This document shows, in pieces, positions 1,201 to 28,414 of a stretch of 39,073 bases of DNA (position 1 is its first letter; the number at the start of each line of letters is the position of its first letter). The notes beneath the pieces are model-generated. The model made no database searches. It had not been told where the DNA came from and saw only the letters and a program-made list of their open reading frames with translations. The translations under genes and the position numbers were made by a program. The stretch lies in the IMG/VR virus record IMGVR_UViG_2869976549_000001. One strand, written 5' to 3'. Source of the DNA: a virus. Its lineage: Duplodnaviria; Heunggongvirae; Uroviricota; Caudoviricetes.

Positions 1201-1549
1201 ATTGCTCTGCGGCTTCGCTCAGAGCTGGCGTATGTTCCCGGCCTACTGATTCACACAGGTAATCAACGAAACCGGACACCAGTTTTCGTTCGCGAGGCGT
1301 GATCGCCCCACCGACCGGAGTCCAGTAATCGAAACCCAGTTGCAGGAGTTTGAAAAAACGCTTGTGGAATGCGTAGTTACACACACGCTTAAAGTCTGCG
1401 TGTATCCACTCACCTATTTTGATTTGATGCAGAAAATCGCAACTCTCCGGCGTCGCCGGGAGAAGTAATCCGGAAGAGGTTTGTTTGACCAGTTGTATAT
1501 GTGCCATCGGCTTTCTCCGGTGGCACGGTGTTACACAGCAGGAGTTCAA
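1201..1549 (-). pseudogene. Hypothetical prophage protein, 3' end truncated by IS600 copy 1
   Basis: Minus-strand ORF 1154..1549 runs from unique DNA into the IS600 right end, so its last residues are IS-encoded; start overlaps the upstream ORF stop (ATGA coupling at 1546-1549). Confidence 0.35.
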
Positions 1550-1833
1550 TCCTGCTCAAGATTGTAGATGAGTTTATTCTTCAGCAAAAGCAGAAAACCA
1601 GCCTTAAAACCAATCTCTTTCAAAACCCGTAATGATGTGACAAATTCGTCCTCACGCAAAATAAAACCGTCCGTCAGAAGTCCATTACAAAAATAAAATA
1701 ACACAGCACCGCTCTTCCTTTGTTGAGATTGCAAACATCTAATGCGGCAATGGCTGACAATCGCTCCATTCTCAACGCGCACAGCATAGAGGCCATTTTC
1801 ACTAAAAATTTCACGCAATTCTTCGATTTTCAT
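1546..1833 (-). CDS. Hypothetical prophage protein (95 aa)
   Basis: ORF translationally coupled to the downstream ORF; no family recognised. Confidence 0.3.
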   Translation of the reverse strand: MKIEELREIFSENGLYAVRVENGAIVSHCRIRCLQSQQRKSGAVLFYFCNGLLTDGFILREDEFVTSLRVLKEIGFKAGFLLLLKNKLIYNLEQD

Positions 1834-2082
1834 CTTCAGAATCCTTCCAGATAAATAGCTCTCCCCTGTTCGGGGTCCATCCCTCTTCTCCCTGCGCGCT
1901 ACTTAAGTGAGTCGATTCTATCTGCGAAGGTGCGCGAATCAAATTCACCGGAAATAAACAACAAAAAACCCGCCGAAACGCTGAGAGATCACAGCGATGG
2001 GCGGGTTAAGTGCGGGTGCGTTGAGGATGCCTGACACATCAGAGGTGGGCGGGGATGGGATCAGCTCCCCGCCCGGTCACTC

Positions 2083-2238
2083 TTACTTCCTGGATTCGTA
2101 GTCTACGAAGACAGCGACCTCCGTCTGGCCGGTTCGGATTCGTACCTCACAGAGGTCTTTCCTCGTTACCAGTGCCGTCACTATGACGGTTAAACAGATG
2201 ACGATCAGGGCGATTAACATCGCCTTTTGCTGCTTCAT
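2083..2238 (-). CDS. hok: Hok/Gef-family membrane toxin (type I toxin; HokD/RelF-like)
   Basis: 51-aa product MKQQKAMLIALIVICLTVIVTALVTRKDLCEVRIRTGQTEVAVFVDYESRK: single TM helix plus the conserved LCE(V/I)RI...EVAAF-type Hok core. The listed ORF (2083..2295) is a 5' extension, possibly the overlapping mok-like frame. Confidence 0.75.
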   Translation of the reverse strand: MKQQKAMLIALIVICLTVIVTALVTRKDLCEVRIRTGQTEVAVFVDYESRK

Positions 2239-2465
2239 AGCCTGCTTCTCCTTGCCTTTCGGCATGTAAGAGGCTAACCTACATGTGCAAAGCATGAAAT
2301 TGGCCTCAGATTAATGTTAAGCGTCTTGCCGGACGCGTAATGTTAACTGGGGCTTTTCTCTATCTGCCTTTTGGTGTTCATGCCTGAAGCAGATAGCCTC
2401 AAGCACCCGCAGTCATTCTACTTACCTCGCCAATATGAAATCAATCAGAAAGGTGCCCCATAAAA

Positions 2466-3152
2466 TCACTCCTTCTCTTCTTTACCGTAGTGGAGTTGAC
2501 CAATTTTGATAAGAGGGCGTCCCTGAGATTTGCGGTGTAGATTGGTATCGCGCAGAGAATACACACAGCCACAATATTCCTGCTGATAGAATTTTTCGCG
2601 CTTGCTGATTTCAATCATACGGGACGAGCCGCCCTGCTTGCGCCAGTTATAATCCCAGTACACCATGCCCGGATAATGCGCGACGGCTCGCCGCCCACAG
2701 TCGTTAACCTGCTGCATATTTTTCCAGCGTGAAATGCCCAGTGAACTGCTGATCACACTGAAACCATTTTCAGCGGCGTACAGCGCTGTCCGCTCAAAAC
2801 GCATGTCAAAACACATGGTGCAACGGATCCCTCGTTCGGGCTCCCATTCCATTCCTTTGGCTCGTTCAAACCAGTTGTCTGTGTCGTAATCAGCATCAAT
2901 AAACGGCACGCCGTGTTGTTCAGCAAAGCGAATATTCTCATCCTTACGAATTAAATACTCTTTCTGAGGATGAATGTTCGGGTTGTAGAAAAAGATGGTG
3001 TAGTCGATTCCCGAGGCCTGAAGCGCCTCCATCACCTCACCGGAACATGGAGCACAGCAAGAGTGCAGTAGTAGTTTGTTTGCCCCGTTTGGGAGCTCCA
3101 ATTTGGGCCGTTTGAAATCAGCAACTGTCATAAATATGTTTATTGGGGTCAT
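2466..3152 (-). CDS. queH: DUF208 / QueH-like epoxyqueuosine-reductase-family Fe-S protein
   Basis: [11 protein letters not shown] motif near the N-terminus plus downstream RCxxCF and YCGC cysteine motifs typical of QueH. Start codon uncertain (alternative Met at about 3131). Confidence 0.55.
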
Positions 3153-3299
3153 AAAAATATCAAAGAGTGTAGCATTAGAACGGGGCTATCGGAAACAGAT
3201 GTGTGACTGCTCCCCGCCCTTTCGGGTGGTCTCCTGATGATTTGAGGGTGCAGAAATCCCTCCGGTTAAGGATTAAATTTTTAACAGTGCTAAATTTAA

Positions 3300-3713
3300 T
3301 TATTCAGTTCTGGATTTTGTCGCCCTGCGTATCCGCGCTTTCGCGTTACGCTCAATCTGTATCAGCTTTTCTATATTTCTCCGCCTTTCCTGTTCCTCCT
3401 GGCGCAATAGCCTTACATCATCTGCCAGTCTGGTTTCTCTTTTTGCCACAGAGAGCATCCAGTCAAACGGCTCCACAACCGCACCGCAGATTTTACAGCG
3501 GACCTGACGCTCTTTTTCGTCAACCCGTACAGAGGCGTGATGGCAATATGGTCTTTCCGATGGCTCATAAAGAAAATTAACCTGATTACGAGGGTCATCC
3601 TCTTTTACCGGAAATAAAACGATATTGCTTAACTCATCTTCTGGTTTTATTTCCATGCTCCTCTCCTTTGATGCGAATGCCAGCGGTAATTGAAGCCTGA
3701 TAGCTAATTTCAT
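3300..3713 (-). CDS. Hypothetical prophage protein with C-x16-C-x2-C cysteine cluster and basic coiled C-terminus
   Basis: 137-aa ORF abutting the upstream gene stop; possible alternative start at about 3656. Confidence 0.35.
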   Translation of the reverse strand: MKLAIRLQLPLAFASKERSMEIKPEDELSNIVLFPVKEDDPRNQVNFLYEPSERPYCHHASVRVDEKERQVRCKICGAVVEPFDWMLSVAKRETRLADDVRLLRQEEQERRRNIEKLIQIERNAKARIRRATKSRTE

Positions 3714-4136
3714 TCACAGTATCGCCTCCTGAAAATTACCCTGATAGAAAGCCAGTACACGCTGCATAGCTTCGCTCTTCCGGCACTCGCGACAGATTAT
3801 ATTCAGGCGCCTGTCGTAGCGGCGTATTTCTCCGTCAGGTAATGACCAGATAAGGTCCGGATCAACAACAACCGGTTTCCTCACCTTTACTCTCGAGAGT
3901 TTTTTGCGGGCGCTTTGCCAGTCCTTGCGAGCCTGTTCAGACGGGAATAAGCCGTAGCCAGAATTATATACATCACCACTTGCGACCAGTTCTATGCATA
4001 AGCGACCGACAGACGCACGACTGATACCTGTTTCATCTGACAACTGCCGAATCGTGACCCGACCGTCCTGATGCACGAGTTCCACAATTCGCGTCTTCAG
4101 TTCTTCCCGCTGTTCGGGAGTAAAAGGTTTCGCCAT
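3714..4136 (-). CDS. Hypothetical prophage protein (140 aa), in the position of Rac YdaW
   Basis: ORF immediately downstream of the DnaC-like gene, same strand, 14-bp gap. Confidence 0.4.
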   Translation of the reverse strand: MAKPFTPEQREELKTRIVELVHQDGRVTIRQLSDETGISRASVGRLCIELVASGDVYNSGYGLFPSEQARKDWQSARKKLSRVKVRKPVVVDPDLIWSLPDGEIRRYDRRLNIICRECRKSEAMQRVLAFYQGNFQEAIL

Positions 4137-4150
4137 AAATCCTCCTGAAA

Positions 4151-4897
4151 CTACTTAACAACCCTCGAATGGCTAACATTCGGACGCCAGCTCTCCCAGT
4201 TAAAATTCACCCAGCGCCCGCCGTTCATGACCATGCGATCCATCACCCGCTCGCCGAGCAATGTTTTCATCACCTCATAGTTCAGGTTTGTCAGCATCCC
4301 CACGCTGCGCATCGACGCTGTCCGGCGATCAACAATCTGGTGCAGCACCACCTGCTCGTTTTTCGTCTCGCGCTGAATGCCAATTTCATCAAGAACCAGC
4401 AGATCCACTTCGCACAGCTCCCGCAAAAATTTTTCGCCTGACTGCCCGTCGTCATAGCTGGCGTGCAGGGCGCTCATAACATCAGCCACGGTAACCACAA
4501 TCACTGTCTGACCGTCTTTCAGCAGGCGATTCCCGATAGCTGCCGCTAAGTGATTCTTCCCGGTACCAGGTTTTCCGCTGAACGCAAAATTTGTACACCC
4601 GGTCATCAGTTCATCGGCGATGGATTTCGCCTGGCTTAACGCGTATCGCTGGCCGTCGTTCTGCACCTGGTAATTCGCAAACGAGCATTTACGGTGCAAC
4701 GGCTGGATGCCTGAGCGATTCAGAATTTTTTCCACCCGCAACTGGCGATTCAGGCGGTTGATCTCCTCGCTACGTTTCTGGCCTTCAGCAAGTTGCCACT
4801 CGCGCCACTCCGCTACCGTTCTGAATGGGGCGGTTACATGTGGCGGGGTCAGTCGGCGGATGCGTTCCAGAACGCCGCCTGTCGCAATATTTTTCAT
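4151..4897 (-). CDS. ydaV: DnaC-like replication ATPase / helicase loader (YdaV-like)
   Basis: 248 aa; Walker A GKPGTGKNHLAAAIG and Walker B DLLVLDEIG, IstB/DnaC family; sits 6 bp after the initiator stop. Confidence 0.8.
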   Translation of the reverse strand: MKNIATGGVLERIRRLTPPHVTAPFRTVAEWREWQLAEGQKRSEEINRLNRQLRVEKILNRSGIQPLHRKCSFANYQVQNDGQRYALSQAKSIADELMTGCTNFAFSGKPGTGKNHLAAAIGNRLLKDGQTVIVVTVADVMSALHASYDDGQSGEKFLRELCEVDLLVLDEIGIQRETKNEQVVLHQIVDRRTASMRSVGMLTNLNYEVMKTLLGERVMDRMVMNGGRWVNFNWESWRPNVSHSRVVK

Positions 4898-5251
4898 GGT
4901 CCGTTACCCCCTGAAGCCTGGCGGGATCGCACTGTCCGGCAACGAGACGGTGTTAACCTGTCGGAGCAACGTCTCAGGCCGAACACCTTTCGGCGCGAAC
5001 AGGCCCTGGTATTCATTGGCGATGCTGTGTCGAATCACCTGCTCAGGTGTAAAACCCTGCTGACGGAATTTTTCCAGTTCCCGTATCGCCCCGTTAGCGC
5101 CCTGCTCCGTTCGAATCGGTTTTCGCAATGCCTGTCTGAACCGGACCCACTCATGCCAGAGTGTTTCCGGCAACCAATCGGGCAGCTCAATAGCCTCCGG
5201 CTCGAATTTTTTAGACGCTCGTTTTTGGCGAGGGGGAGATCAGTATTTAGA

Positions 5252-5302
5252 TCTTCCTCTTCCTCTTCCTCTTCCTCTTCCTCTTCCTCTTCCTCTTCCT
5301 CT
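5252..5302. repeat. Hexanucleotide tandem repeat (TCTTCC) x8.5; encodes a poly-Glu linker on the minus strand
   Basis: Perfect tandem copies 5252-5299 plus partial copy; in frame (GAG GAA)n on the minus strand inside the initiator gene. Confidence 0.9.
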
Positions 5303-5326
5303 GGTAACGCTTTTTGATCCGTTTGT

Positions 5327-5345
5327 GTAACGCTGGCAGCGTTAC
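5327..5345. promoter_or_regulatory. Palindrome GTAACGC-N5-GCGTTAC, copy 1 of 3 (candidate origin/operator site)
   Basis: GTAACGCTGGCAGCGTTAC next to the poly-Glu repeat; an extra GTAACGC half-site at 5304-5310. Confidence 0.4.
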
Positions 5346-5535
5346 CTTTTCGTTTCAGTTCGCGTATTTTTGTTACTCGCTCGTTTGTAACCGCCCGTTT
5401 TTTTTAGAGCTTTTTCCGTTATGACGTTCAAAGTTAGGTAGAGAAAGCCCTCCGTCATTTTCGACCAGCCATCCAACCTGAATTAACGCATCAGCAAAAC
5501 CAGACATAAAAGTGATGCGATCTATTGCACTTTTT

Positions 5536-5554
5536 GTAACGCCGCGAGCGTTAC
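5536..5554. promoter_or_regulatory. Palindrome GTAACGC-N5-GCGTTAC, copy 2 of 3
   Basis: GTAACGCCGCGAGCGTTAC inside the 5' part of the initiator gene. Confidence 0.4.
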
Positions 5555-5581
5555 AATCTGCATTACCGTCTGGATTTGCCC

Positions 5582-6487
5582 CTATATTTCCAGACATCTG
5601 TTATCACTTAACCCATTACAAGCCCGCTGCCGCAGATATTCCCGTGGCGAGCGATAACCCAGCGCACTATGCGGATGCCATTCGTTATAATGCTCGAACG
5701 CCTCTGCAAGGTTCTTTGCTGCCGTTAACCCGTCTGGTTTGGGCATGATACTGATGTAGTCACGCTTTATCGTTTTCACGAAGCTCTCTGCTATTCCGTT
5801 ACTCTCCGGACTCCGCACCGCCGTGTTCTTCGGTTCAAGTCCCAACATCCGGGCGAACTGGCGTGTTTCATTAGCCCGGTAGCATGAACCATTATCCGTC
5901 AGCCACTCCACTGGAGACGACGGAAGATCGTTGCCGAAGCGGCGTTCCACCGCTCCCAGCATGACGTCCTGTACTGTTTCACTGTTGAAGCCGCCGGTAG
6001 TCACCGCCCAGTGCAGTGCCTCACGATCACAGCAGTCCAGCGCGAACGTGACACGCAGTCTCTCTCCGTTATCACAGCAGAACTCGAACCCGTCAGAGCA
6101 CCATCGCTGATTGCTTTCTTTCACGGCCACTCTGCCTGTATGTGCCCGTTTCGATGGCGGTACAGCAGGTTTTCGCTCAAGCAACAGCGCATTCTGGCGC
6201 ATGATCCGGTAAACACGTTTGGCATTGATCGCAGGCATACCATCAAGTTCTGCCTGTCTGCGAAGCAGCGCCCATACCCGACGATAACCATACGTGGGCA
6301 GCTCTCCGATAACATGGTGTATACGGAGAAGCACATCCGTATCATCAGTGTGACGACTGCGGCGGCCATCCATCCAGTCATCGGTTCGTCTGAGAATGAC
6401 GTGCAACTGCGCACGCGACCCCCGGAGACAACGGCTGACTAAGCTTACTCCCCATCCCCGGGCAATAAGGGCGCGTGCGCTATCCAC
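5582..6487 (-). CDS. insD: IS2 transposase InsD (OrfB)
   Basis: 301-aa ORF, DDE integrase-core motifs; identical to the copy at 14057..14962. Confidence 0.9.
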
Positions 6488-6810
6488 TTTTTTGCCCGTC
6501 CATATTCAACGGCTTCTTTGAGGAGTTCATTTTCCATCGTTTTCTTGCCGAGCAGGCGCTGGAGTTCTTTAATCTGCTTCATGGCGGCAGCAAGTTCAGA
6601 GGCAGGAACAACCTGTTCTCCGGCGGCGACAGCAGTAAGACTTCCTTCCTGGTATTGCTTACGCCAGAGAAATAACTGGCTGGCTGCTACACCATGTTGC
6701 CGGGCAACGAGGGAGACCGTCATCCCCGGTTCAAAGCTCTGCTGAACAATTGCGATCTTTTCCTGTGTGGTACGCCGTCTGCGTTTCTCCGGCCCTAAGA
6801 CATCAATCAT
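6445..6810 (-). CDS. insC: IS2 InsC (OrfA, HTH)
   Basis: 121-aa product from Met [13 protein letters not shown]...; the listed ORF has a 15-aa 5' extension. Confidence 0.85.
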
Positions 6811-6901
6811 CTGTACTCCAATGACTAGTCTAAAAACTAGTATTAAGACTATCACTTATTTAAGTGATACTGGTTGTCTGGAGATTCAGGGGGCCAGTCT
6901 A

Positions 6902-6946
6902 CCGTCTATCATTTGTTGATCCGCCCATGCCCAGAAGCGAATAACC
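6902..6946 (-). pseudogene. 45-bp internal fragment of the replication initiator gene, stranded between IS2 and IS600
   Basis: After excising both IS elements and one copy of each duplication, the fragment reads in frame (...VIRFWAWADQQMID...) between the 8211-8317 and 5373-5570 segments. Confidence 0.55.
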
Positions 6947-7010
6947 TGAGGTAGCCTGAGTTTAACGGACACTCCTTCCTGAAATAGAATGGCATCAGAA
7001 GGAGCTAATA

Positions 7011-7313
7011 ATGAGCAGAAAAACCCAACGTTACTCTAAAGAGTTCAAAGCCGAAGCTGTCAGAACGGTTCCTGAAAATCAACTTTCGATCAGTGAAGGC
7101 GCTTCCCGATTATCTCTTCCTGAAGGCACTTTAGGACAATGGGTTACCGCCGCCAGAAAAGGGCTCGGTACTCCTGGTTCCCGCACGGTGGCTGAACTGG
7201 AATCTGAAATTCTGCAACTGCGTAAGGCGTTAAATGAAGCTCGCCTTGAGCGAGATATATTAAAAAAAGCAACAGCGTATTTTGCACAGGAGTCGCTGAA
7301 AAATACGCGTTAA
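7011..7313 (+). CDS. IS600 transposase OrfA
   Basis: Identical to 1..303. Confidence 0.9.
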   Translation: MSRKTQRYSKEFKAEAVRTVPENQLSISEGASRLSLPEGTLGQWVTAARKGLGTPGSRTVAELESEILQLRKALNEARLERDILKKATAYFAQESLKNTR

Positions 7314-7348
7314 TCGAACAATGGCGACAACAATTTCCCATTGAAGCG

Positions 7349-8167
7349 ATGTGTCAGGTATTTGGTGTATCCAGGAGCGGTTATTACAACTGGGTACAGC
7401 ATGAACCCTCAGACAGAAAACAAAGTGATGAGCGGCTAAAACTGGAGATTAAGGTGGCACATATCCGCACTCGCGAAACATATGGAACCCGGCGGCTCCA
7501 GACGGAGCTGGCAGAGAATGGCATCATCGTTGGTCGTGACCGACTGGCACGTCTTCGTAAGGAGCTAAGGCTACGCTGTAAGCAGAAACGCAAGTTCAGA
7601 GCGACTACGAACTCGAACCACAATCTGCCAGTTGCGCCAAATCTGCTGAACCAGACGTTCGCTCCTACAGCACCAAATCAGGTCTGGGTGGCGGACCTGA
7701 CGTATGTTGCCACACAGGAGGGATGGTTGTACCTCGCTGGCATCAAAGATGTTTATACGTGCGAAATTGTCGGCTACGCCATGGGAGAGCGCATGACAAA
7801 AGAGCTGACAGGTAAAGCCCTGTTTATGGCGCTCAGGAGCCAGCGCCCACCTGCCGGGCTAATCCACCACTCTGATCGAGGTTCACAGTACTGCGCATAC
7901 GATTACCGGGTCATACAGGAGCAGTCTGGTCTGAAAACATCAATGTCGCGTAAAGGTAACTGTTACGACAACGCTCCGATGGAAAGCTTCTGGGGAACGC
8001 TGAAAAATGAGAGCCTGAGCCACTATCGTTTTAATAACCGGGATGAAGCCATCTCAGTAATACGGGAATACATTGAGATTTTCTACAATCGTCAGCGTCG
8101 TCACTCTCGTCTGGGGAATATCTCCCCGGCAGCCTTCAGGGAAAAATATCATCAGATGGCTGCTTAA
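7349..8167 (+). CDS. IS600 transposase OrfB
   Basis: Identical to 339..1157. Confidence 0.9.
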   Translation: MCQVFGVSRSGYYNWVQHEPSDRKQSDERLKLEIKVAHIRTRETYGTRRLQTELAENGIIVGRDRLARLRKELRLRCKQKRKFRATTNSNHNLPVAPNLLNQTFAPTAPNQVWVADLTYVATQEGWLYLAGIKDVYTCEIVGYAMGERMTKELTGKALFMALRSQRPPAGLIHHSDRGSQYCAYDYRVIQEQSGLKTSMSRKGNCYDNAPMESFWGTLKNESLSHYRFNNRDEAISVIREYIEIFYNRQRRHSRLGNISPAAFREKYHQMAA

Positions 8168-8210
8168 AAAAAGAACAAATGGTAGTGTCCGCTATTGCCA
8201 GTACACCTCA

Positions 8211-8317
8211 ACCTTCCCTAATGCGGCATCTGGATCAATATTCAGAATCTCAGCAAGCCTGAATATTTCCGGCTTATCCGGCGTAATAACCTCGAGCTTT
8301 ATCCAGTTTGAAGCCAT
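8211..8317 (-). pseudogene. N-terminal fragment of the replication initiator (YdaU-like): MASNWIKLEVITPDKPEIFRLAEILNIDPDAALGKV
   Basis: ATG at 8317..8315 preceded by RBS AAGGTG; reading frame continues across the IS600 and IS2 insertion sites once the elements are removed. Confidence 0.55.
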
Positions 8318-8330
8318 TTGTTTTCACCTT

Positions 8331-8349
8331 GTAACGCTCGCAGCGTTAC
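8331..8349. promoter_or_regulatory. Palindrome GTAACGC-N5-GCGTTAC, copy 3 of 3, directly upstream of the initiator RBS
   Basis: GTAACGCTCGCAGCGTTAC abutting the AAGGTG RBS (rc of 8325-8330) of the initiator start at 8317. Confidence 0.4.
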
Positions 8350-8394
8350 ATTTAACTGATACCGAACAAAACAATCCGGCACGATTAATTTCAA

Positions 8395-17923: not shown

Positions 17924-19277
17924 TTTCTGGACTATGCGGGCACGTAACAAAGTGCTTTATGGTGGTCGGTCATCGTCAAAATCATGGGATGCCGCTGGCA
18001 TTGCCATATTTCTGTCGAATAAATACACCCTGCGTTTTTGTTGTGCCCGTCAGATCCAGAATAAAATCGAAGAGTCGGTGTATACCCTGCTCAAAATTCA
18101 GATAGACAGGTTTGGTCTGCGGCACCGTTTCCGTATTCTGAACAACAAAATCATTAACCGGGTTACTGGCTCGGAATTTGTTTTTTATGGATTATGGCGC
18201 AACATCGAAGAAATTAAGTCACTGGAGGGGATCGATGTGTTGTGGCTGGAAGAAGCCCACGCACTGACGGAATACCAGTGGAAAATTCTGGAGCCAACGA
18301 TCCGTAAAGAGGGTTCGGAATGCTGGTTCATATTCAACCCCGGACTTGTTACTGATTTCGTCTGGCGCAACTTCGTTGTTGATCCGCCCGAAGGCACTCT
18401 CATCCGCAAAATTAACTATGACGAAAATCCGTTTCTGTCTGACACCATGCTTAAGGTTATCGACGCGGCGCGACGCCGTGATCCGGATGGTTTTAAACAT
18501 GTGTATGAGGGCGTTCCGGAGTCTGATGATGATGCGGCAATCATCAAACTGTCTTGGATAGAAGCCGCAGTGGATGCGCACAAAACGTTAAATTTCGAAC
18601 CCAGTGGAAGAAAGCGTATTGGCTTTGACGTGGCTGACAGTGGTACAGATAAGTGCGCTAACGTTTACCGTCACGGATCCGTTGTTTTCTGGGCCGACGA
18701 ATGGAAGGCCAAAGAAGATGAATTACTGAAGAGCTGCCAGCGTACTTATCAGGCGGCGCTGGAGCGTGAAGCAGATATTGTTTACGACTCTATCGGTGTT
18801 GGTGCGTCTGCCGGTGCTAAATTCTCTGAAATTAACGCTGACCGGAAGAGCGAGAACGCATACGCGCGACGTGTGAATTACCAGAGGTTTAACGCCGGTG
18901 CTGGTGTGCATGAGCCAGATGACGAGTACAACGGCATCCCCAACAAAGACTTTTTCGCAAATCTTAAGGCTCAGGCATGGTGGCTGGTGGCTGACCGTTT
19001 CAGAAATACGTTTAACGCCATTAACAACGGAGAACAGTATCCTGTGGATGAGCTGATCAGCATAGATTCTCGTTGTCCGTTGCTTGAAAAGCTGAAACTG
19101 GAACTGACAACACCTCATCGTGATTTCGACCGTAACGGACGTGTGATGGTCGAAAGTAAAAAAGACCTCGCAAAACGCGAGATACCGTCACCAAACGTTG
19201 CTGATGCATTCATTATGGCCTTCGCGCCAATCGATACATCGCTGGATATCTGGGAACAGCTGGGGAGACAGGCCTGA
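17847..19277 (+). CDS. Terminase large subunit
   Basis: ATPase and nuclease-type motifs (VLYGGRSSSKSWD Walker A-like; DVLWLEEAH). Start uncertain: candidate ATGs at 17835, 17847, 17850, 17856; the listed ORF begins at a TTG at 17766. Confidence 0.8.
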   Translation: MMAMESVTSMTSTLTSKPTLNPALRSFWTMRARNKVLYGGRSSSKSWDAAGIAIFLSNKYTLRFCCARQIQNKIEESVYTLLKIQIDRFGLRHRFRILNNKIINRVTGSEFVFYGLWRNIEEIKSLEGIDVLWLEEAHALTEYQWKILEPTIRKEGSECWFIFNPGLVTDFVWRNFVVDPPEGTLIRKINYDENPFLSDTMLKVIDAARRRDPDGFKHVYEGVPESDDDAAIIKLSWIEAAVDAHKTLNFEPSGRKRIGFDVADSGTDKCANVYRHGSVVFWADEWKAKEDELLKSCQRTYQAALEREADIVYDSIGVGASAGAKFSEINADRKSENAYARRVNYQRFNAGAGVHEPDDEYNGIPNKDFFANLKAQAWWLVADRFRNTFNAINNGEQYPVDELISIDSRCPLLEKLKLELTTPHRDFDRNGRVMVESKKDLAKREIPSPNVADAFIMAFAPIDTSLDIWEQLGRQA

Positions 19278-19453
19278 TGGCACGAAACAAACAAGCCCTG
19301 CGGCGAACTGTGCAGGCCACAGCTGATGGTTATGAGAATTTTATTGCCCGCGTAGGGATGCAGACACCTAACCAGCACTCAGCATCCACCTACCGGGCTA
19401 ATTTCACCAGTCGTAACCGCATGCTGGTGGAATGGTCCTATCGTTCATCCTAA
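19277..19453 (+). pseudogene. Portal gene, 5' segment (58 codons) ending at the TAG that forms the IS630 target
   Basis: ATG overlaps the terminase stop (TGATG); MARNKQALRRTVQATADGYENFIARVGMQTPNQHSASTYRANFTSRNRMLVEWSYRSS then TA(A) at the IS630 junction. Confidence 0.5.
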
Positions 19454-20605
19454 ATAGCTGCGCGGAATAGTAGATCACTTTGAGGGAACTTAGCCCGGAT
19501 TGTGCGATCTGATCAATCGCCAAATCAAAACAAATCACCAACCGGACTGAGCAATGCCGATCATAGCACCAATTTCCCGTGACGAACGACGCCTGATGCA
19601 GAAAGCCATCCATAAAACACACGATAAAAATTATGCCCGCAGACTGACTGCCATGCTGATGCTGCACCGGGGCGACCGTGTCAGCGACGTTGCCAGAACG
19701 CTCTGCTGCGCCCGTTCCTCTGTTGGACGCTGGATTAACTGGTTCACGCAGTCGGGTGTTGAGGGACTGAAATCATTACCTGCCGGGCGTGCCCGTCGCT
19801 GGCCGTTTGAGCATATCTGCACACTGTTACGTGAGCTGGTAAAACATTCTCCCGGCGACTTTGGCTACCAGCGTTCACGCTGGAGTACAGAACTGCTGGC
19901 AATAAAAATCAATGAGATAACCGGTTGCCAGTTAAATGCCGGAACCGTTCGCCGCTGGTTGCCGTCTGCGGGGATTGTGTGGCGAAGGGCTGCGCCAACT
20001 CTGCGTATCCGTGACCCGCATAAAGATGAAAAGATGGCAGCAATCCATAAAGCACTGGACGAATGCAGCGCAGAGCATCCGGTCTTTTATGAAGATGAAG
20101 TGGATATCCATCTTAATCCCAAAATCGGTGCGGACTGGCAACTGCGCGGACAGCAAAAACGGGTGGTCACGCCGGGACAGAATGAAAAATATTATCTGGC
20201 CGGAGCGCTGCACAGCGGGACAGGTAAAGTCAGCTGTGTGGGCGGCAACAGCAAAAGTTCGGCGCTGTTCATCAGCCTGCTGAAGCGGCTTAAAGCGACA
20301 TACCGTCGGGCGAAAACCATCACGCTGATCGTGGACAACTACATTATCCACAAAAGCCGGGAAACACAGAGCTGGCTGAAGGAGAACCCGAAGTTCAGGG
20401 TCATTTATCAGCCGGTTTACTCGCCATGGGTGAATCATGTTGAACGGCTATGGCAGGCACTTCACGACACAATAACGCGTAATCATCAGTGCAGCTCAAT
20501 GTGGCAACTGTTGAAAAAAGTTCGCCATTTTATGGAAACCGTCAGCCCATTCCCCGGAGGCAAACATGGGCTGGCAAAAGTGTAGCGGTATTAAGCGCAG
20601 CTATT
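19453..20605 (+). mobile_element. IS630, 1153 bp, with TA target duplication inside a CTAG site
   Basis: Terminal inverted repeats AAATAGCTGCGC at 19453 and rc at 20605; TA at 19451-19452 and 20606-20607; pre-insertion target reads CCTAGA. Confidence 0.88.
19554..20585 (+). CDS. IS630 transposase
   Basis: 343-aa ORF, Tc1/IS630-family DDE transposase. Confidence 0.88.
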   Translation: MPIIAPISRDERRLMQKAIHKTHDKNYARRLTAMLMLHRGDRVSDVARTLCCARSSVGRWINWFTQSGVEGLKSLPAGRARRWPFEHICTLLRELVKHSPGDFGYQRSRWSTELLAIKINEITGCQLNAGTVRRWLPSAGIVWRRAAPTLRIRDPHKDEKMAAIHKALDECSAEHPVFYEDEVDIHLNPKIGADWQLRGQQKRVVTPGQNEKYYLAGALHSGTGKVSCVGGNSKSSALFISLLKRLKATYRRAKTITLIVDNYIIHKSRETQSWLKENPKFRVIYQPVYSPWVNHVERLWQALHDTITRNHQCSSMWQLLKKVRHFMETVSPFPGGKHGLAKV

Positions 20606-20608
20606 TAG

Positions 20609-20809
20609 ATCATCGGCGAAGCAGTCGATGCTATCCCGGATGATATGACCCGCAAAGGCATTCGCATCACTTCGGAAATTGATGCAAAAGATCGTGGCAT
20701 TCTCGAATCACAACTGGATGAGTTGCAAATCTGGGATGCGCTGAATGACGTGCTGAAATGGTCGCGCCTCTACGGCGGCGCGGTGGGTTTCATCATGATT
20801 GAGGGGTAG
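20609..20809 (+). pseudogene. Portal gene, middle segment (66 sense codons) ending at a second in-frame TAG (20807-20809)
   Basis: Open frame IIGEAVDAIPDDMTRKGIRITSEIDAKDRGILESQLDELQIWDALNDVLKWSRLYGGAVGFIMIEG-TAG, same frame as the portal ORF at 20816. Confidence 0.5.
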
Positions 20810-20815
20810 GCACCA

Positions 20816-21898
20816 ATGACCCCGCTGCGACCCGAAACCATCGGTAAGGGCAAGTTTAAGGGGATTCTCCCGCTCGACCGCTGGATGGTCGACCCGGCAC
20901 TGACCCGCCGCATTAAAGATATGGGGCCGGACCTGGGTAAACCTGAGTTTTACGATGTGGTGACCACAGCAACGGGAATTCCTGCCTGGCGCATTCATCA
21001 CAGTCGCCTGATTCGCTTTGATGGCGTCACGTTGCCATTTCAGCAGAAGATGACCGAGAACGAATGGGGAATGTCGGTTGTAGAGCGTATCTGGGATCGT
21101 CTTACCGCGTTCGACAGCGCTACTGTCGGCGCGGCGCAGCTGGTCTACAAGGCGCATTTGCGTACCTACAGCGTGGAGAAGCTACGCGAGCTTATCGCAC
21201 TTGGTGGTCCTGCGTATGAAGCGTTGCTGAAGAATATCGACCTGATTCGACAGTTCCAGAGTAATGAAGGCATGACGCTCATGGACTCGCGGGATAAGTT
21301 TGAAACCCATCAGTACAGCTTCAGTGGTCTGGATGACATCCTTTCGCAGTTTGTAGAACAGATTAGTGGCGCTGTTGGTATCCCACTGGTGCGGTTGTTC
21401 GGACAGTCCCCGAAAGGATTTTCTACCGGTGATGCAGACCTTGCCAACTATTACGATCGCATCAGTTCGTTGCAGGAGAGGCGTTTACGTCTTCCGGTGC
21501 GGCGGATACTGGACATCATGCATCGTTCGGAACTTGGCAAGCCGCTGCCGGACGATTTCACGTTTGAGTTTAACCCGCTCTGGCAAATGTCTGATGTCGA
21601 TCGCTCAACGGTGGCGTTAAACACCACCAACGCAATCAGTACGGCGCTGGGTGATGGTCTGATGACACTGAAAGCCGCTATGACTGATTTGCGAGAAAAT
21701 TCTGACGTAACCGGCATCGGGGCATCCATTACCGACGAGGACATCGAGAATGCCGAAGATGAAGCGCCGCCCGGCATCGGCGAACCTGATGACGAACCGC
21801 AGGAGCCGTCAGGCGGAAATCCGGTATCGAACCAGCCTACGCAGGATAGCGAGGGCGGTCGGAGACATCGTAAATGGTCGCTACGATGGTTCAAATGA
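20816..21898 (+). CDS. Phage portal protein, major C-terminal ORF (360 aa)
   Basis: Position between terminase and head-morphogenesis genes; acidic C-terminal tail; in frame with the two upstream segments. Confidence 0.65.
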   Translation: MTPLRPETIGKGKFKGILPLDRWMVDPALTRRIKDMGPDLGKPEFYDVVTTATGIPAWRIHHSRLIRFDGVTLPFQQKMTENEWGMSVVERIWDRLTAFDSATVGAAQLVYKAHLRTYSVEKLRELIALGGPAYEALLKNIDLIRQFQSNEGMTLMDSRDKFETHQYSFSGLDDILSQFVEQISGAVGIPLVRLFGQSPKGFSTGDADLANYYDRISSLQERRLRLPVRRILDIMHRSELGKPLPDDFTFEFNPLWQMSDVDRSTVALNTTNAISTALGDGLMTLKAAMTDLRENSDVTGIGASITDEDIENAEDEAPPGIGEPDDEPQEPSGGNPVSNQPTQDSEGGRRHRKWSLRWFK

Positions 21899-22532
21899 CA
21901 GTATCACGGAAATTATTGCGGCGCTGGAGCGTTACAGTGAAATCATCACCCCCTGGGCGACAAAGGTCGCGGAAAACTTTACTGCGGACCTAACCCGGCA
22001 GAACGAGAAAGTTTGGCGGCAACACAGCAAGAACATCAGTCGCGAGCTCCGCAATCTTGTGGAAAGCGCTCCTGTGGGCCAGGTGATGCAATCCATCATC
22101 GCCGAACAGGTCAAGTACATCAAATCTCTGCCTCTCGAGGCCGCAGACAGGGTGTACGACATCCAGAACAAAGCGATAGAGGCTGTTGTCACCGGTGGTC
22201 GGGCGGAGCAGTTTGCTAAAGAGATTGCATCTACCGGCGATGTTGCTAAGTCTAGGGCCGATCTGATTGCCCGAACGGAACTGGGAAGAGCAACGGGCGC
22301 GCTGGATATGGCCCGAGCGATAGCTATTGGCTCGGATGGTTATATTTGGCGTACAGCCGATGATGGCGATGTCCGAGATTCCCACGATCACATGAAAGGT
22401 AAATTCGTCCGCTGGGATTCACCTCCAACTTTGGACGGCATGACCGGCCACGCGGGCGAGCTGCCAAACTGCCGCTGCTATAAAGAGATCGTGTTTGTTC
22501 GCGTTCCATTCGCAATGAAAAGGGCAGCATAA
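21750..22532 (+). CDS. Head morphogenesis protein (Mu F / SPP1 gp7-like minor head protein)
   Basis: 260-aa ORF overlapping the portal 3' end. Start uncertain: no in-frame ATG downstream of the portal stop and before the conserved region. Confidence 0.55.
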   Translation: MPKMKRRPASANLMTNRRSRQAEIRYRTSLRRIARAVGDIVNGRYDGSNDSITEIIAALERYSEIITPWATKVAENFTADLTRQNEKVWRQHSKNISRELRNLVESAPVGQVMQSIIAEQVKYIKSLPLEAADRVYDIQNKAIEAVVTGGRAEQFAKEIASTGDVAKSRADLIARTELGRATGALDMARAIAIGSDGYIWRTADDGDVRDSHDHMKGKFVRWDSPPTLDGMTGHAGELPNCRCYKEIVFVRVPFAMKRAA

Positions 22533-22535
22533 CCC

Positions 22536-23756
22536 ATGAAATACTTTTTTGAGACCAGGCTCGGGGAAACCCGATACCGCCTGGCTGACGGCTCGTTGCT
22601 GTGCAAAGACGTGCCGATAGGACGAACAGGTAAGCAGCTCTATGGTGCTGATGACCTGCCAAAACTGAAACCCGATAAGTTCGGTGAAATAGTCGTCACG
22701 CGTTCTCCTGAGCAGGTATTCCATCCGGCCACGCTTGCCTCATTCGAAGGGATGAGCATCACGATCCTGCATCCTGAAGATGAAAACGGGAATGTGCGGC
22801 TGGTAAATCCCGAGAACTGGAAAGAGCTTGCTGTCGGGCACCTCCAGAATGTCCGGCGCGGGACGGGTGAGCAGTCTGATTTGATGCTGGCTGACCTTAT
22901 CGTCAAAGACGAAAGCGCCATTCAGCTTATCGAAGATGGCCTGCGCGAAGTGTCGTGCGGCTATGACGCGGAGTACGAGCAGACCGAGCCAGGTAAAGCC
23001 GAGCAGGTCGATATTACCGGAAACCATGTGGCTCTTGTCCCTAAAGGCAGAGCCGGAAATCGTTGTGCAATTGGAGACAGAGACACAATGGCAAATCAAA
23101 AGAAAAACTGGTGGAACCGCATGCGTGCGGCCATCAAGACAGGAGATGCCGACACCATGAACGAACTGGTGGAGTCGGCTCCCGCATCGGTTACAGGAGA
23201 TGAGGGGGATTTGCCGCAGGGCGTTAATCTCAACATCAACCTGTCCCCGCAGCAACCACTACCGGACAAAGCACCAGAGATGGGCGGAGATCCAACCGGC
23301 GACAGTGATGATGACCTCAAAACATTACTGAAAGCCCTGCTGGCTAAGCTGGAAAGAAATGCCACGGGCGATAACGATAATAAGCCTGACGATAATCCGA
23401 CCGGTGACGGCGAGGACGATGAAGAGGAAACCACGATTACTGGTGACTCAGCCTGGCGTGCCGAAGTTATCGTTCCGGGTATCGATCTGAGCCGTAAGAT
23501 GAAACCGACCGCGTTCAAACGCGAGGTTCTGGCTTCTGCTGACAAAACGCTGGTTCGCCAGATAGTCGGTGATGCGGATATCCGCAAATTACCGAAACAA
23601 TCGGTCGACATGGCGTTTAATGCCGTGTCTGAGGTTGCCAAAGGGCGAAACACCCGCGCCACCACCGGCGATGCACAGCGCCTAAACATGGGCATGACCA
23701 GTATCGCTTCCCTGAACAAACAAAACGCTGAATTCTGGGCAAACCGTAAAGGGTAA
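22536..23756 (+). CDS. Putative prohead scaffold/protease protein
   Basis: 406 aa with a central acidic low-complexity linker (GDSDDD, GDNDNKPDDNPTGDGEDDEEE); position after the head morphogenesis gene. Confidence 0.45.
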   Translation: MKYFFETRLGETRYRLADGSLLCKDVPIGRTGKQLYGADDLPKLKPDKFGEIVVTRSPEQVFHPATLASFEGMSITILHPEDENGNVRLVNPENWKELAVGHLQNVRRGTGEQSDLMLADLIVKDESAIQLIEDGLREVSCGYDAEYEQTEPGKAEQVDITGNHVALVPKGRAGNRCAIGDRDTMANQKKNWWNRMRAAIKTGDADTMNELVESAPASVTGDEGDLPQGVNLNINLSPQQPLPDKAPEMGGDPTGDSDDDLKTLLKALLAKLERNATGDNDNKPDDNPTGDGEDDEEETTITGDSAWRAEVIVPGIDLSRKMKPTAFKREVLASADKTLVRQIVGDADIRKLPKQSVDMAFNAVSEVAKGRNTRATTGDAQRLNMGMTSIASLNKQNAEFWANRKG

Positions 23757-23759
23757 AAA

Positions 23760-24266
23760 ATGAATAATGTATTTCTGTACCGGATGCCTGTTGGCATTGC
23801 CGGGGCTGTCTCTCGCCCGCAGGACTTAACCGTCGAACCGGTGGTCCTTAAATCCGATAACGCCTTCGCTGCCTATGGCCTGGCTGGTAAATACGATGAT
23901 GACGGTTTTTTCGTGCCGCTGGCAGATGGTGATACCGCAGACAAGGTGAAGGGGATCTACGTGCGCCCTTATCCGACCACGTCGCAGCCGGACATGGTTC
24001 GCCAGGTGGGAACAGGCAAGAACTTCCCGGGCGACGCCATGAAGCGTGGCTACGTGACCGTTAATCTCGGTTCTGATTTTGATGCCAGCACTATCAAAAA
24101 AGGCGATCCGGTATACGTTGTCGTCTCCACTGATGAATCCATCAAAGTGCCGCTGGGTGGATTCATGTCCACGTCAGTCAGTGGCAAAAACGTGGTGCTG
24201 ACCAACGCTGAATTCACAGGTGCCGGTGATGCTGACGGCAATGCAGAAATTTCCTGGAAGATTTAA
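23760..24266 (+). CDS. Phage head structural protein (possible decoration protein)
   Basis: 168-aa ORF 3 bp after the scaffold gene; followed 15 bp later by IS1. Confidence 0.4.
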   Translation: MNNVFLYRMPVGIAGAVSRPQDLTVEPVVLKSDNAFAAYGLAGKYDDDGFFVPLADGDTADKVKGIYVRPYPTTSQPDMVRQVGTGKNFPGDAMKRGYVTVNLGSDFDASTIKKGDPVYVVVSTDESIKVPLGGFMSTSVSGKNVVLTNAEFTGAGDADGNAEISWKI

Positions 24267-24336
24267 GGAACAGACGAATGAGGTGATGCTGCCAACTTAC
24301 TGATTTAGTGTATGATGGTGTTTTTGAGGTGCTCCA

Positions 24337-24612
24337 GTGGCTTCTGTTTCTATCAGCTGTCCCTCCTGTTCAGCTACTGACGGGGTGGTGCGTAACGGCA
24401 AAAGCACTGCAGGACATCAGCGCTATCTCTGCTCTCACTGCCGTAAAACATGGCAACTGCAGTTCACTTACACCGCTTCTTAACCCGGTACGCACCAGAA
24501 AATCATTGATATGGCCATGAATGGCGTTGGATGCCGGGCAACTGCACGCATTATGGGCGTTGGCCTCAACACGATTTTACGTCACTTAAAAAACTCAGGC
24601 CGCAGTCGGTAA
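24337..24612 (+). pseudogene. insA: IS1 insA with in-frame TAA at codon 49
   Basis: GTG start, [22 protein letters not shown]... then GCT TCT TAA (24481-24483) where a sense codon is expected; frame otherwise intact to the normal stop. Confidence 0.7.
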
Positions 24613-25034
24613 CCTCGCGCATACAGCCGGGCAGTGACGTCATCGTCTGCGCGGAAATGGACGAACAGTGGGGCTATGTCGGGGCTAAATCGCGCCAGCG
24701 CTGGCTGTTTTACGCGTATGACAGTCTCCGGAAGACGGTTGTTGCGCACGTATTCGGTGAACGCACTATGGCGACGCTGGGGCGTCTTATGAGCCTGCTG
24801 TCACCCTTTGACGTGGTGATATGGATGACGGATGGCTGGCCGCTGTATGAATCCCGCCTGAAGGGAAAGCTGCACGTAATCAGCAAGCGATATACGCAGC
24901 GAATTGAGCGGCATAACCTGAATCTGAGGCAGCACCTGGCACGGCTGGGACGGAAGTCGCTGTCGTTCTCAAAATCGGTGGAGCTGCATGACAAAGTCAT
25001 CGGGCATTATCTGAACATAAAACACTATCAATAA
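24531..25034 (+). CDS. insB: IS1 InsB frame (167 aa)
   Basis: Full-length InsB-frame ORF; A-run frameshift window upstream. Confidence 0.8.
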
Positions 25035-25065
25035 GTTGGAGTCATTACCAACAGGGGGATTTACC

Positions 25066-27446: not shown

Positions 27447-27646
27447 TATTACTCCGGAAAATGGAAGCGACGATTTTGGGTGGCTGGCCGTTAAAAATTT
27501 TAACTGCATTTAGCCAACTTAAATTAATGAAAAAATGTTATTAATCGTTGAGCTAAAGTCATTAGAGATGCTTTGCCCTTAATGTAACCATATCGCAATA
27601 AGTTATGTTTTTAAATTGAGGGCATTATTATGAAAAAAATACCCTG

Positions 27647-28414
27647 GGTAATGACTCCAACTTATTGATAGTGTTTTATGTTCAGATAATGCCCGATGGC
27701 TTTGTCATGCAGCTCCACCGATTTTGAGAACGACAGCGACTTCCGTCCCAGCCGTGCCAGGTGCTGCCTCAGATTCAGGTTATGCCGCTCAATTCGCTGC
27801 GTATATCGCTTGCTGATTACGTGCAGCTTTCCCTTCAGGCGGGATTCATACAGCGGCCAGCCATCCGTCATCCATATCACCACGTCAAAGGGTGACAGCA
27901 GGCTCATAAGACGCCCCAGCGTCGCCATAGTGCGTTCACCGAATACGTGCGCAACAACCGTCTTCCGGAGACTGTCATACGCGTAAAACAGCCAGCGCTG
28001 GCGCGATTTAGCCCCGACATAGCCCCACTGTTCGTCCATTTCCGCGCAGACGATGACGTCACTGCCCGGCTGTATGCGCGAGGTTACCGACTGCGGCCTG
28101 AGTTTTTTAAGTGACGTAAAATCGTGTTGAGGCCAACGCCCATAATGCGTGCAGTTGCCCGGCATCCAACGCCATTCATGGCCATATCAATGATTTTCTG
28201 GTGCGTACCGGGTTAAGAAGCGGTGTAAGTGAACTGCAGTTGCCATGTTTTACGGCAGTGAGAGCAGAGATAGCGCTGATGTCCTGCAGTGCTTTTGCCG
28301 TTACGCACCACCCCGTCAGTAGCTGAACAGGAGGGACAGCTGATAGAAACAGAAGCCACTGGAGCACCTCAAAAACACCATCATACACTAAATCAGTAAG
28401 TTGGCAGCATCACC
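27647..28414 (-). mobile_element. IS1, copy B, 768 bp, inverted relative to copy A; no target-site duplication
   Basis: rc of IS1 termini at 27647 and 28414; flanks AATACCCTG / CAAAAAAGG differ; carries the same insA TAA (28213-28215). Confidence 0.9.
27662..28165 (-). CDS. insB: IS1 InsB frame
   Basis: 167-aa ORF, identical to copy A except one residue. Confidence 0.8.

Follow-up and report, generated by a model that had tools for sequence, protein, structure and literature searches.

A probable portal pseudogene with two amber codons and an IS630 insertion in a defective Shigella sonnei-type prophage

Organization of the interrupted portal locus

The window analyzed here is the whole 39,073-nucleotide (nt) stretch of DNA held as IMG/VR virus record IMGVR_UViG_2869976549_000001 (Caudoviricetes), and the subject of this study is its phage portal gene, which is broken up by two in-frame TAG (amber) codons and by a copy of the insertion sequence (IS) IS630. 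When positions 19453 to 20607 were deleted in silico, what remained was one 1467-nt, 488-codon frame that has TAG as its codons 59 and 126 and reads ...TCA TCC TAG ATC ATC... across the excision point. The original prediction, made from the sequence alone, had placed three segments (19277 to 19450, 20609 to 20806, and 20816 to 21898) in one frame of about 488 codons containing two TAG codons, and both the coordinates and the arithmetic hold, since all three segments share the frame of the excised gene.

Read from 5' to 3' on the plus strand, the locus comprises the following: codons 1 to 58, the N-terminal fragment (19277 to 19450); the left TA of a target-site duplication (19451 to 19452); IS630; the right TA, which together with the next G forms amber codon 59 (20606 to 20608) in place of an ancestral TGG (Trp); codons 60 to 125 (20609 to 20806); amber codon 126 (20807 to 20809) in place of an ancestral CAG (Gln); and codons 127 to 488 with the natural stop codon, TGA at 21896 to 21898 (segment 20810 to 21898), which hold an open reading frame (ORF) of 360 amino acids (aa) starting at the ATG at 20816. 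The 5' ORF extends from 19277 to 19453, and its 58 codons end in a TAA composed of the TA at 19451 to 19452 and the first A of IS630. Gene callers give separate ORFs of 58, 54, and 360 aa at the locus.

The portal gene lies directly 3' of the terminase large-subunit gene and 5' of the head morphogenesis and scaffold genes, the position expected for its family. The terminase gene (17874 to 19277, plus strand) is intact, encodes 467 aa matching TIGR01547 (PBSX family), and has a stop codon that overlaps the portal start, in the same synteny as in the relatives described below. The head morphogenesis gene (Mu F/SPP1 gp7-like; 21789 to 22532, plus strand) overlaps the 3' end of the portal gene.

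IS630 and its target site

The IS630 copy (19453 to 20605, plus strand) is a full-length element of 1153 bp with imperfect terminal inverted repeats, beginning AATAGCTGCGC and ending GCGCAGCTATT; the first 11 nt of the repeats (AATAGCTGCGC) are perfect. Its transposase ORF (19554 to 20585, 343 aa) matched NCBIfam NF033545 above the cut-off (E = 8e-77), and across its whole length the element shared 99.4 to 99.6% identity with copies annotated "IS630-like element IS630." It is flanked by TA at 19451 to 19452 and at 20606 to 20607, the left junction reading tcatccTA followed by AATAGCTGCGC and the right junction GCGCAGCTATT followed by TAGatcatc; the junction sequences are CTATCGTTCATCCTAAATAGCTGCGCGG and GCGCAGCTATTTAGATCATCGGCG. 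The predicted length of 1155 bp for the element plus one TA, a multiple of 3 (385 x 3), was also confirmed; it follows from the element length of 1153 bp plus 2 and has no functional meaning.

IS630 is reported to prefer the TA of 5'-CTAG-3' as its target and to duplicate that TA (Tenzen and Ohtsubo 1991, as cited in PMC6811581 and PMC2170065), and an IS630 copy inserted at a CTAG-type site has been described in fliC of S. sonnei (PMC6811581). In agreement with this preference, cta-IS-tag flanks were found in all four of the independent IS630 copies compared (the window copy and three that were fetched), and the window junctions read ccTA-IS-TAga, versus CCTAGA at the empty site of S. sonnei 53G. 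CTAG is the rarest tetranucleotide of the window, with 9 occurrences observed versus about 153 expected from base composition, and it is absent from the intact portal gene. With C as the last base of codon 58, the change of codon 59 from TGG to TAG (W59am) made the only CTAG in the gene. The window element thus resembles the known IS630 of S. sonnei in size, repeats, 343-aa transposase, and TA duplication in CTAG; it is unremarkable in itself, and its sole peculiarity is a target that was absent from the ancestral gene and was made by a nonsense mutation.

Membership in the PF06381 portal family

When the portal protein was restored with X at both TAG positions, it gave one Pfam match, to PF06381 (Phage_portal_3, formerly DUF1073), with an E value of 5.8e-104 and a score of 348 bits against a cut-off of 33.8 bits. 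Residues 55 to 402 of the protein aligned with profile positions 7 to 355 of 357, so that the match crosses both TAG codons and encloses codons 60 to 125. The solved portal of cyanophage Pam3 (PDB 8hds) was collinear with residues 15 to 413 (E = 5.8e-38), and in that alignment position 59 is Trp (YRNSW versus YRSSW) and position 126 is Gln (VKDQD versus IEGQA). Other solved portals, 9jlf, 9l01, and E217 gp19 (8fvh), also matched the restored protein. The Pam3 portal is distant, with about 28% identity to the window portal by tblastn against the Pam3 genome, and was used only for collinearity and for the conservation of these two residues.

The 58-codon segment is the true portal N terminus, because the Pam3 alignment is collinear and PF06381 spans both TAG codons, and the frame common to the three segments is not a matter of chance, because one PF06381 domain runs across both stops. 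These results bear on the proposal, raised in the original prediction, that the locus consists of three independent small genes that happen to share a frame. The separate annotation of the 58-, 54-, and 360-aa ORFs is what such an arrangement would produce, but the Pfam domain and the Pam3 alignment are collinear through all segments, relatives with 99.8% identity encode one 488-aa protein, and homologs start at the Met corresponding to 19277, rather than at the Met at 20816, with the upstream segments aligning to portal N termini. The probability of three separate genes is therefore negligible. As judged from its sequence, the locus belongs to the PF06381 family but is a presumptive pseudogene, the full-length frame being interrupted by the two in-frame TAG codons and the 1153-bp IS630.

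Intact relatives and the three derived substitutions

With the 5'-most 594 nt of the excised gene as the megablast query, the segment was detected in 376 of 5426 complete Escherichia coli genomes, in all of which it is annotated as a DUF1073 protein beside the terminase large subunit. The best E. coli matches had 99.7% identity (2 mismatches over 594 nt), and no allele with a single mismatch in this segment was present among the complete E. coli genomes. In E. coli FDAARGOS_944 and VL40 the coding sequence (CDS) is intact; it encodes a 488-aa protein (WP_000113499.1), is 1467 nt long like the excised window gene, and differs from that gene by 3 bases (99.8% nucleotide identity). These differences are G176A, which changes TGG (Trp59) to TAG (window position 19452); C376T, which changes CAG (Gln126) to TAG (20807); and C923T, which changes GCA to GTA (Ala308Val [A308V]; 21354). 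Codons 1 to 58 are identical to the 5' end of the WP_000113499.1 gene, the G-to-A change at 19452 lying just outside that segment, and codons 60 to 125 are likewise identical to those of the intact relatives.

E. coli 14EC029 and Escherichia phage vB_EcoM-606R2 (ON470579.1), the latter with an intact portal of 98.6% protein identity, have TGG, CAG, and GCA at the three sites. Because these outgroups carry Trp, Gln, and Ala, all three changes, each a G:C-to-A:T transition, are derived in the window lineage. The excision, translation, and alignment suggested with the original prediction thus gave collinear portal homology across both TAG positions and sense codons in the relatives, and inactivation of the portal by two nonsense changes without frameshifts, one of the possibilities that it had listed, is borne out by intact relatives at a distance of 3 bases.

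The relatives with an intact portal share with the window the order terminase large subunit, portal, head morphogenesis, DUF2213, and Gp24 cement genes; downstream, they also keep capsid and tail genes that are missing from the window. In the portal itself, TAG59, TAG126, A308V, and the 1153-bp IS630 within codon 59 set the window copy apart from these relatives.

The FDAARGOS_944 and VL40 sequences themselves bear IS600, IS630, IS1, IS2, IS4, and IS150. In addition, VL40 has a 245-kb plasmid with three IS630 matches, an IS150 in its tape-measure-like transglycosylase gene, and an IS2 in its baseplate J gene. This suggests that FDAARGOS_944 and VL40 are enteroinvasive E. coli or Shigella-like strains in which the decay of the same prophage is less advanced.

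Empty-site alleles with both amber codons

The exact 58-aa and 360-aa products are recorded in about 2600 to 2700 blocks of public assemblies (about 2576 for the 360-aa product). Eight loci on long contigs (L005 to L012), from seven S. sonnei-type assemblies, were fetched for comparison. In all eight, the 58-aa ORF has no IS630 after it, and the call for the 54-aa ORF follows 37 nt later in most of them. Seven of these loci, including those of S. sonnei 53G (HE616528.1; PMC5447701), CP022457.1, and CP044191.1, have a 1467-nt gene that matches the excised window gene base for base. These seven read CGTTCATCCTAGATCATC at the first amber site and GAGGGGTAGGCA at the second, giving the empty site TCC TAG ATC, an allele present in 53G and no fewer than six other assemblies; the eighth locus, L010, has both TAG codons and a 1-bp indel. 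The identity extends beyond the gene: the IS630-excised window showed 100% identity with HE616528.1, CP022457.1, and GCA_965230885 over 6466 nt, and of five loci compared with the excised segment, four (including 53G) had no differences over 5177 to 6466 nt and CP044191.1 had one.

The S. sonnei 53G-type allele has in common with the window both amber codons, A308V, and an IS1 after the cement gene; it differs in lacking IS630, with TCC TAG ATC at the site, and thus represents the direct precursor state of the window allele. Since alleles with both TAG codons but without IS630 exist and are identical to the excised window gene, the amber codons precede IS630, in accord with the original proposal that the first TAG was older than the insertion and supplied its CTAG target. 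On this comparison, the double-amber form is the allele commonly found in S. sonnei-type genomes, whereas the insertion of IS630 came later and is unfixed.

A second occupied allele was sought in two ways. A scan of the species-representative genomes of GTDB for the exact IS630/portal junction gave no match, and all eight places shown for the 58-aa product, drawn from longest-contig blocks only, were empty sites. The 2- to 5-kb contig classes of this product make up 182 to 293 blocks, which may hide short-read assemblies broken by IS630.

Phage structural genes with amber mutations have a classical place in laboratory work, and premature stops can also be introduced by sequencing or assembly errors, either of which might account for two TAG codons in one structural gene. 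The identical allele, however, recurs in many assemblies that different projects produced independently, among them 53G and several complete chromosomes, and the truncated products occur in about 2600 blocks of public data. An origin of the stops in error or in the laboratory is therefore scarcely conceivable.

State of the surrounding prophage

In comparison with the complete prophage of FDAARGOS_944 (L003), the window retains a late region (15377 to 24281) with lysis, DedA-family, terminase, portal, head morphogenesis, DUF2213, and Gp24 cement genes. Upstream of it, an IS2 of 1331 bp (14046 to 15376) splits the prophage holin gene: window positions 13838 to 14045 correspond to L003 positions 15898 to 16105 and those from 15377 onward to L003 from 16101, the two flanks fall within the holin CDS (L003 15908 to 16123), and the 5-bp overlap is the target duplication. 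The lysis cassette is thus also inactivated. A second IS2 copy lies at about 5571 to 6901. Compared with FDAARGOS_944, the lysozyme and Rz-like genes (15399 to 16363) had 7 missense changes and 1 synonymous change (unpolarized), among them C18R and W91R in a lysis protein, which suggests that constraint is relaxed in the lysis genes too.

Downstream, the head module ends in an IS1 (24282 to 25049) directly after the Gp24 cement gene, and the genes from the major capsid to the baseplate, about 14.8 kb in the relative (L003 23851 to 38653), have no counterpart in the window. The head module is followed by pgl, a LysR regulator gene (ybhD-like), a second IS1, a 5'-truncated ybhJ-type hydratase gene, and ybhC, so that the module is joined to chromosomal DNA through IS1-mediated rearrangement. 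Beyond ybhC lie a truncated integrase gene, IS600, tail-fiber remnants, and a gene for an IpaH-type NEL E3 ligase.

Over the 7750 nt shared with FDAARGOS_944 there were 16 differences: 2 nonsense, both in the portal gene, 10 missense, and 4 synonymous. The terminase large-subunit, head morphogenesis, DUF2213, and Gp24 genes are uninterrupted. The 12:4 ratio of nonsynonymous to synonymous differences is near neutral, about that of unconstrained sequence.

The retention of a single frame through both stops leaves a further reading of the locus, which the original prediction had also offered, namely, that a functional portal is produced by amber read-through, either with a suppressor tRNA or by programmed read-through, at least in the empty-site strains. 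The absence of frameshifts, the fact that both stops are TAG, and the fact that two of the three derived changes are amber would all fit such a gene. The TAG codons are unconserved, however, with TGG and CAG in every relative examined and the stops confined to the S. sonnei-type allele; of the 376 E. coli genomes with the homologous segment, none exceeded 99.7% identity; and the other late genes contain no in-frame TAG. No tRNA gene was found in the window by ARAGORN or Rfam, and the tRNA cluster of the related prophages, which the window has lost, carries the anticodons CAT, TCT, TGT, and TCC/TAC but not CTA. With the major capsid and tail genes missing and the holin gene split, moreover, a portal would have no assembly partners, and IS630 breaks the window gene regardless. 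Read-through was accordingly judged highly improbable. A recoded phage reading TAG as Gln was considered separately and ruled out on the absence of in-frame TAG codons from the neighboring late genes and the TGG and CAG codons of the relatives.

Other features of the window

The IS load of the 39 kb amounts to four IS600 copies, one of them partial (1 to 1201, 6943 to 8211, 9881 to 10588, and 33030 to 34293), two IS2, two IS1, and one IS630, together roughly a quarter of the window. The two IS1 copies (24282 to 25049 and 27646 to 28414) are oppositely oriented and flank the host pgl gene and the ybhD-like LysR regulator gene. The hydratase gene after the second IS1 begins at profile position 32 and is thus truncated at its 5' end. 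Judged by the K-12 gene order, ybhH and ybhI seem to be absent. An Rfam naRNA4 (nucleoid-associated noncoding RNA 4, REP-type) at 30676 to 30746 scored 63.2 bits against a gathering threshold of 59.5 between the ybhJ-type gene and ybhC.

Beside ybhC, a 270-aa phage integrase fragment (PF00589; 32233 to 33045, minus strand) is cut by the IS600 at 33030 to 34293. The fragment looks like the attachment-site end of a prophage on the ybhC side, which on the K-12 map is the neighborhood of the lambda attachment site. Just past the tail-fiber remnants (34245 to 36072), a 587-aa ORF (36252 to 38015, minus strand) combines an LRR_TTSS N terminus with a C-terminal NEL E3-ligase domain, the architecture of IpaH-type type III effectors. 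This IpaH-type cargo gene may be the reason that the dead remnant has been retained.

The early region (1201 to 13600) is inverted and fragmented in comparison with both FDAARGOS_944 and VL40. It includes an Rfam sok antitoxin RNA (2233 to 2408, minus strand, 117 bits), indicating a hok/sok-type toxin-antitoxin locus, which adjoins a QueH-like gene (2466 to 3152) as hokD and QueH adjoin each other in FDAARGOS_944.

Discussion

The explanation that best fits these results, to which we assign a probability of about 0.93, is that the locus is a portal pseudogene, that it lies in a defective prophage remnant riddled with IS elements on an S. sonnei-type chromosome, and that it decayed in three steps. 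The starting point was an intact 488-codon portal of the PF06381/DUF1073 family, and this intact ancestral form persists in related E. coli prophages and in phage vB_EcoM-606R2. In a second step, W59am, Q126am, and A308V, three substitutions whose direction is given by the outgroups, were fixed in the lineage leading toward S. sonnei, with W59am creating the CTAG; the empty-site intermediate is seen in the 53G-type alleles. In the third step, confined to the window strain or its sublineage, IS630, a cut-and-paste element of the Tc1/mariner type, inserted into the new CTAG and duplicated the TA, so that the left junction reads TAA and the right one TAG again, as the anatomy of the occupied target displays. 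The comparisons of alleles establish these states and the sequence in which they arose. The changes probably built up neutrally in a prophage that was already useless as a phage or was becoming so, and a full-length portal is probably not made.

Three points weigh against this explanation. Firstly, nonsense changes account for two of the three substitutions derived in the portal, which has a P value of about 0.003 to 0.011 under random substitution when the portal alone is considered; such an excess could point to something besides neutral drift. Secondly, the search for a suppressor tRNA covered the window and the cluster of the related prophages rather than the whole host genome. Thirdly, a GAGGGG motif resembling a Shine-Dalgarno sequence ends 9 nt 5' of the ATG at 20816, around the second TAG (window positions 20795 to 20818), and an N-terminally truncated portal fragment of 360 aa could arise by reinitiation there.

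The excess of nonsense changes would be expected if inactivation of the portal had been adaptive, that is, if selection in the ancestor of S. sonnei had acted against the portal or against particle production. A second nonsense mutation, however, adds no benefit after the first, and loss of the portal leaves lysis on induction possible. Furthermore, the late region as a whole has 2 nonsense changes among 16, an unremarkable and nonsignificant count, and a near-neutral ratio of 12:4, and the statistic is post hoc, the gene having been picked for its stops. Because of this post hoc choice of gene and the figure of 2 in 16 over the late region, the excess was not taken as a sign of selection or of suppression. 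Reductive evolution has, in addition, been described for S. sonnei, in which fliC is one of the other genes that IS630 has disrupted (PMC6811581). Adaptive inactivation was accordingly given only a small chance. A similarly slim chance attaches to a broader proposal, in which the amber codons would record either conditional expression through amber suppression or a selected knockout in the ancestral S. sonnei prophage, and the succession from nonsense mutation to CTAG to IS630 might then be a general and measurable route of this element into dead genes of CTAG-depleted enterobacterial genomes.

Returning to the three-step decay of a portal pseudogene, every component is of a known kind: a PF06381 portal, an IS630 with its CTAG/TA target, and decay of prophage remnants in Shigella driven by IS elements and nonsense mutations, a mechanism that is itself known. 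For annotation, the 58-, 54-, and 360-aa ORFs should be described as one portal pseudogene interrupted by IS630, and the finding has little importance beyond this. All three stages of the process are kept in public genomes, namely, the gene in its intact form, the empty site with both amber codons, and the site occupied by IS630, and the insertion is a potential marker of a sublineage within S. sonnei. The locus thus appears as ordinary gene decay of the Shigella type and, within that, illustrates cleanly how a natural point mutation made a new target for an IS with sequence specificity in a genome where CTAG is strongly depleted.

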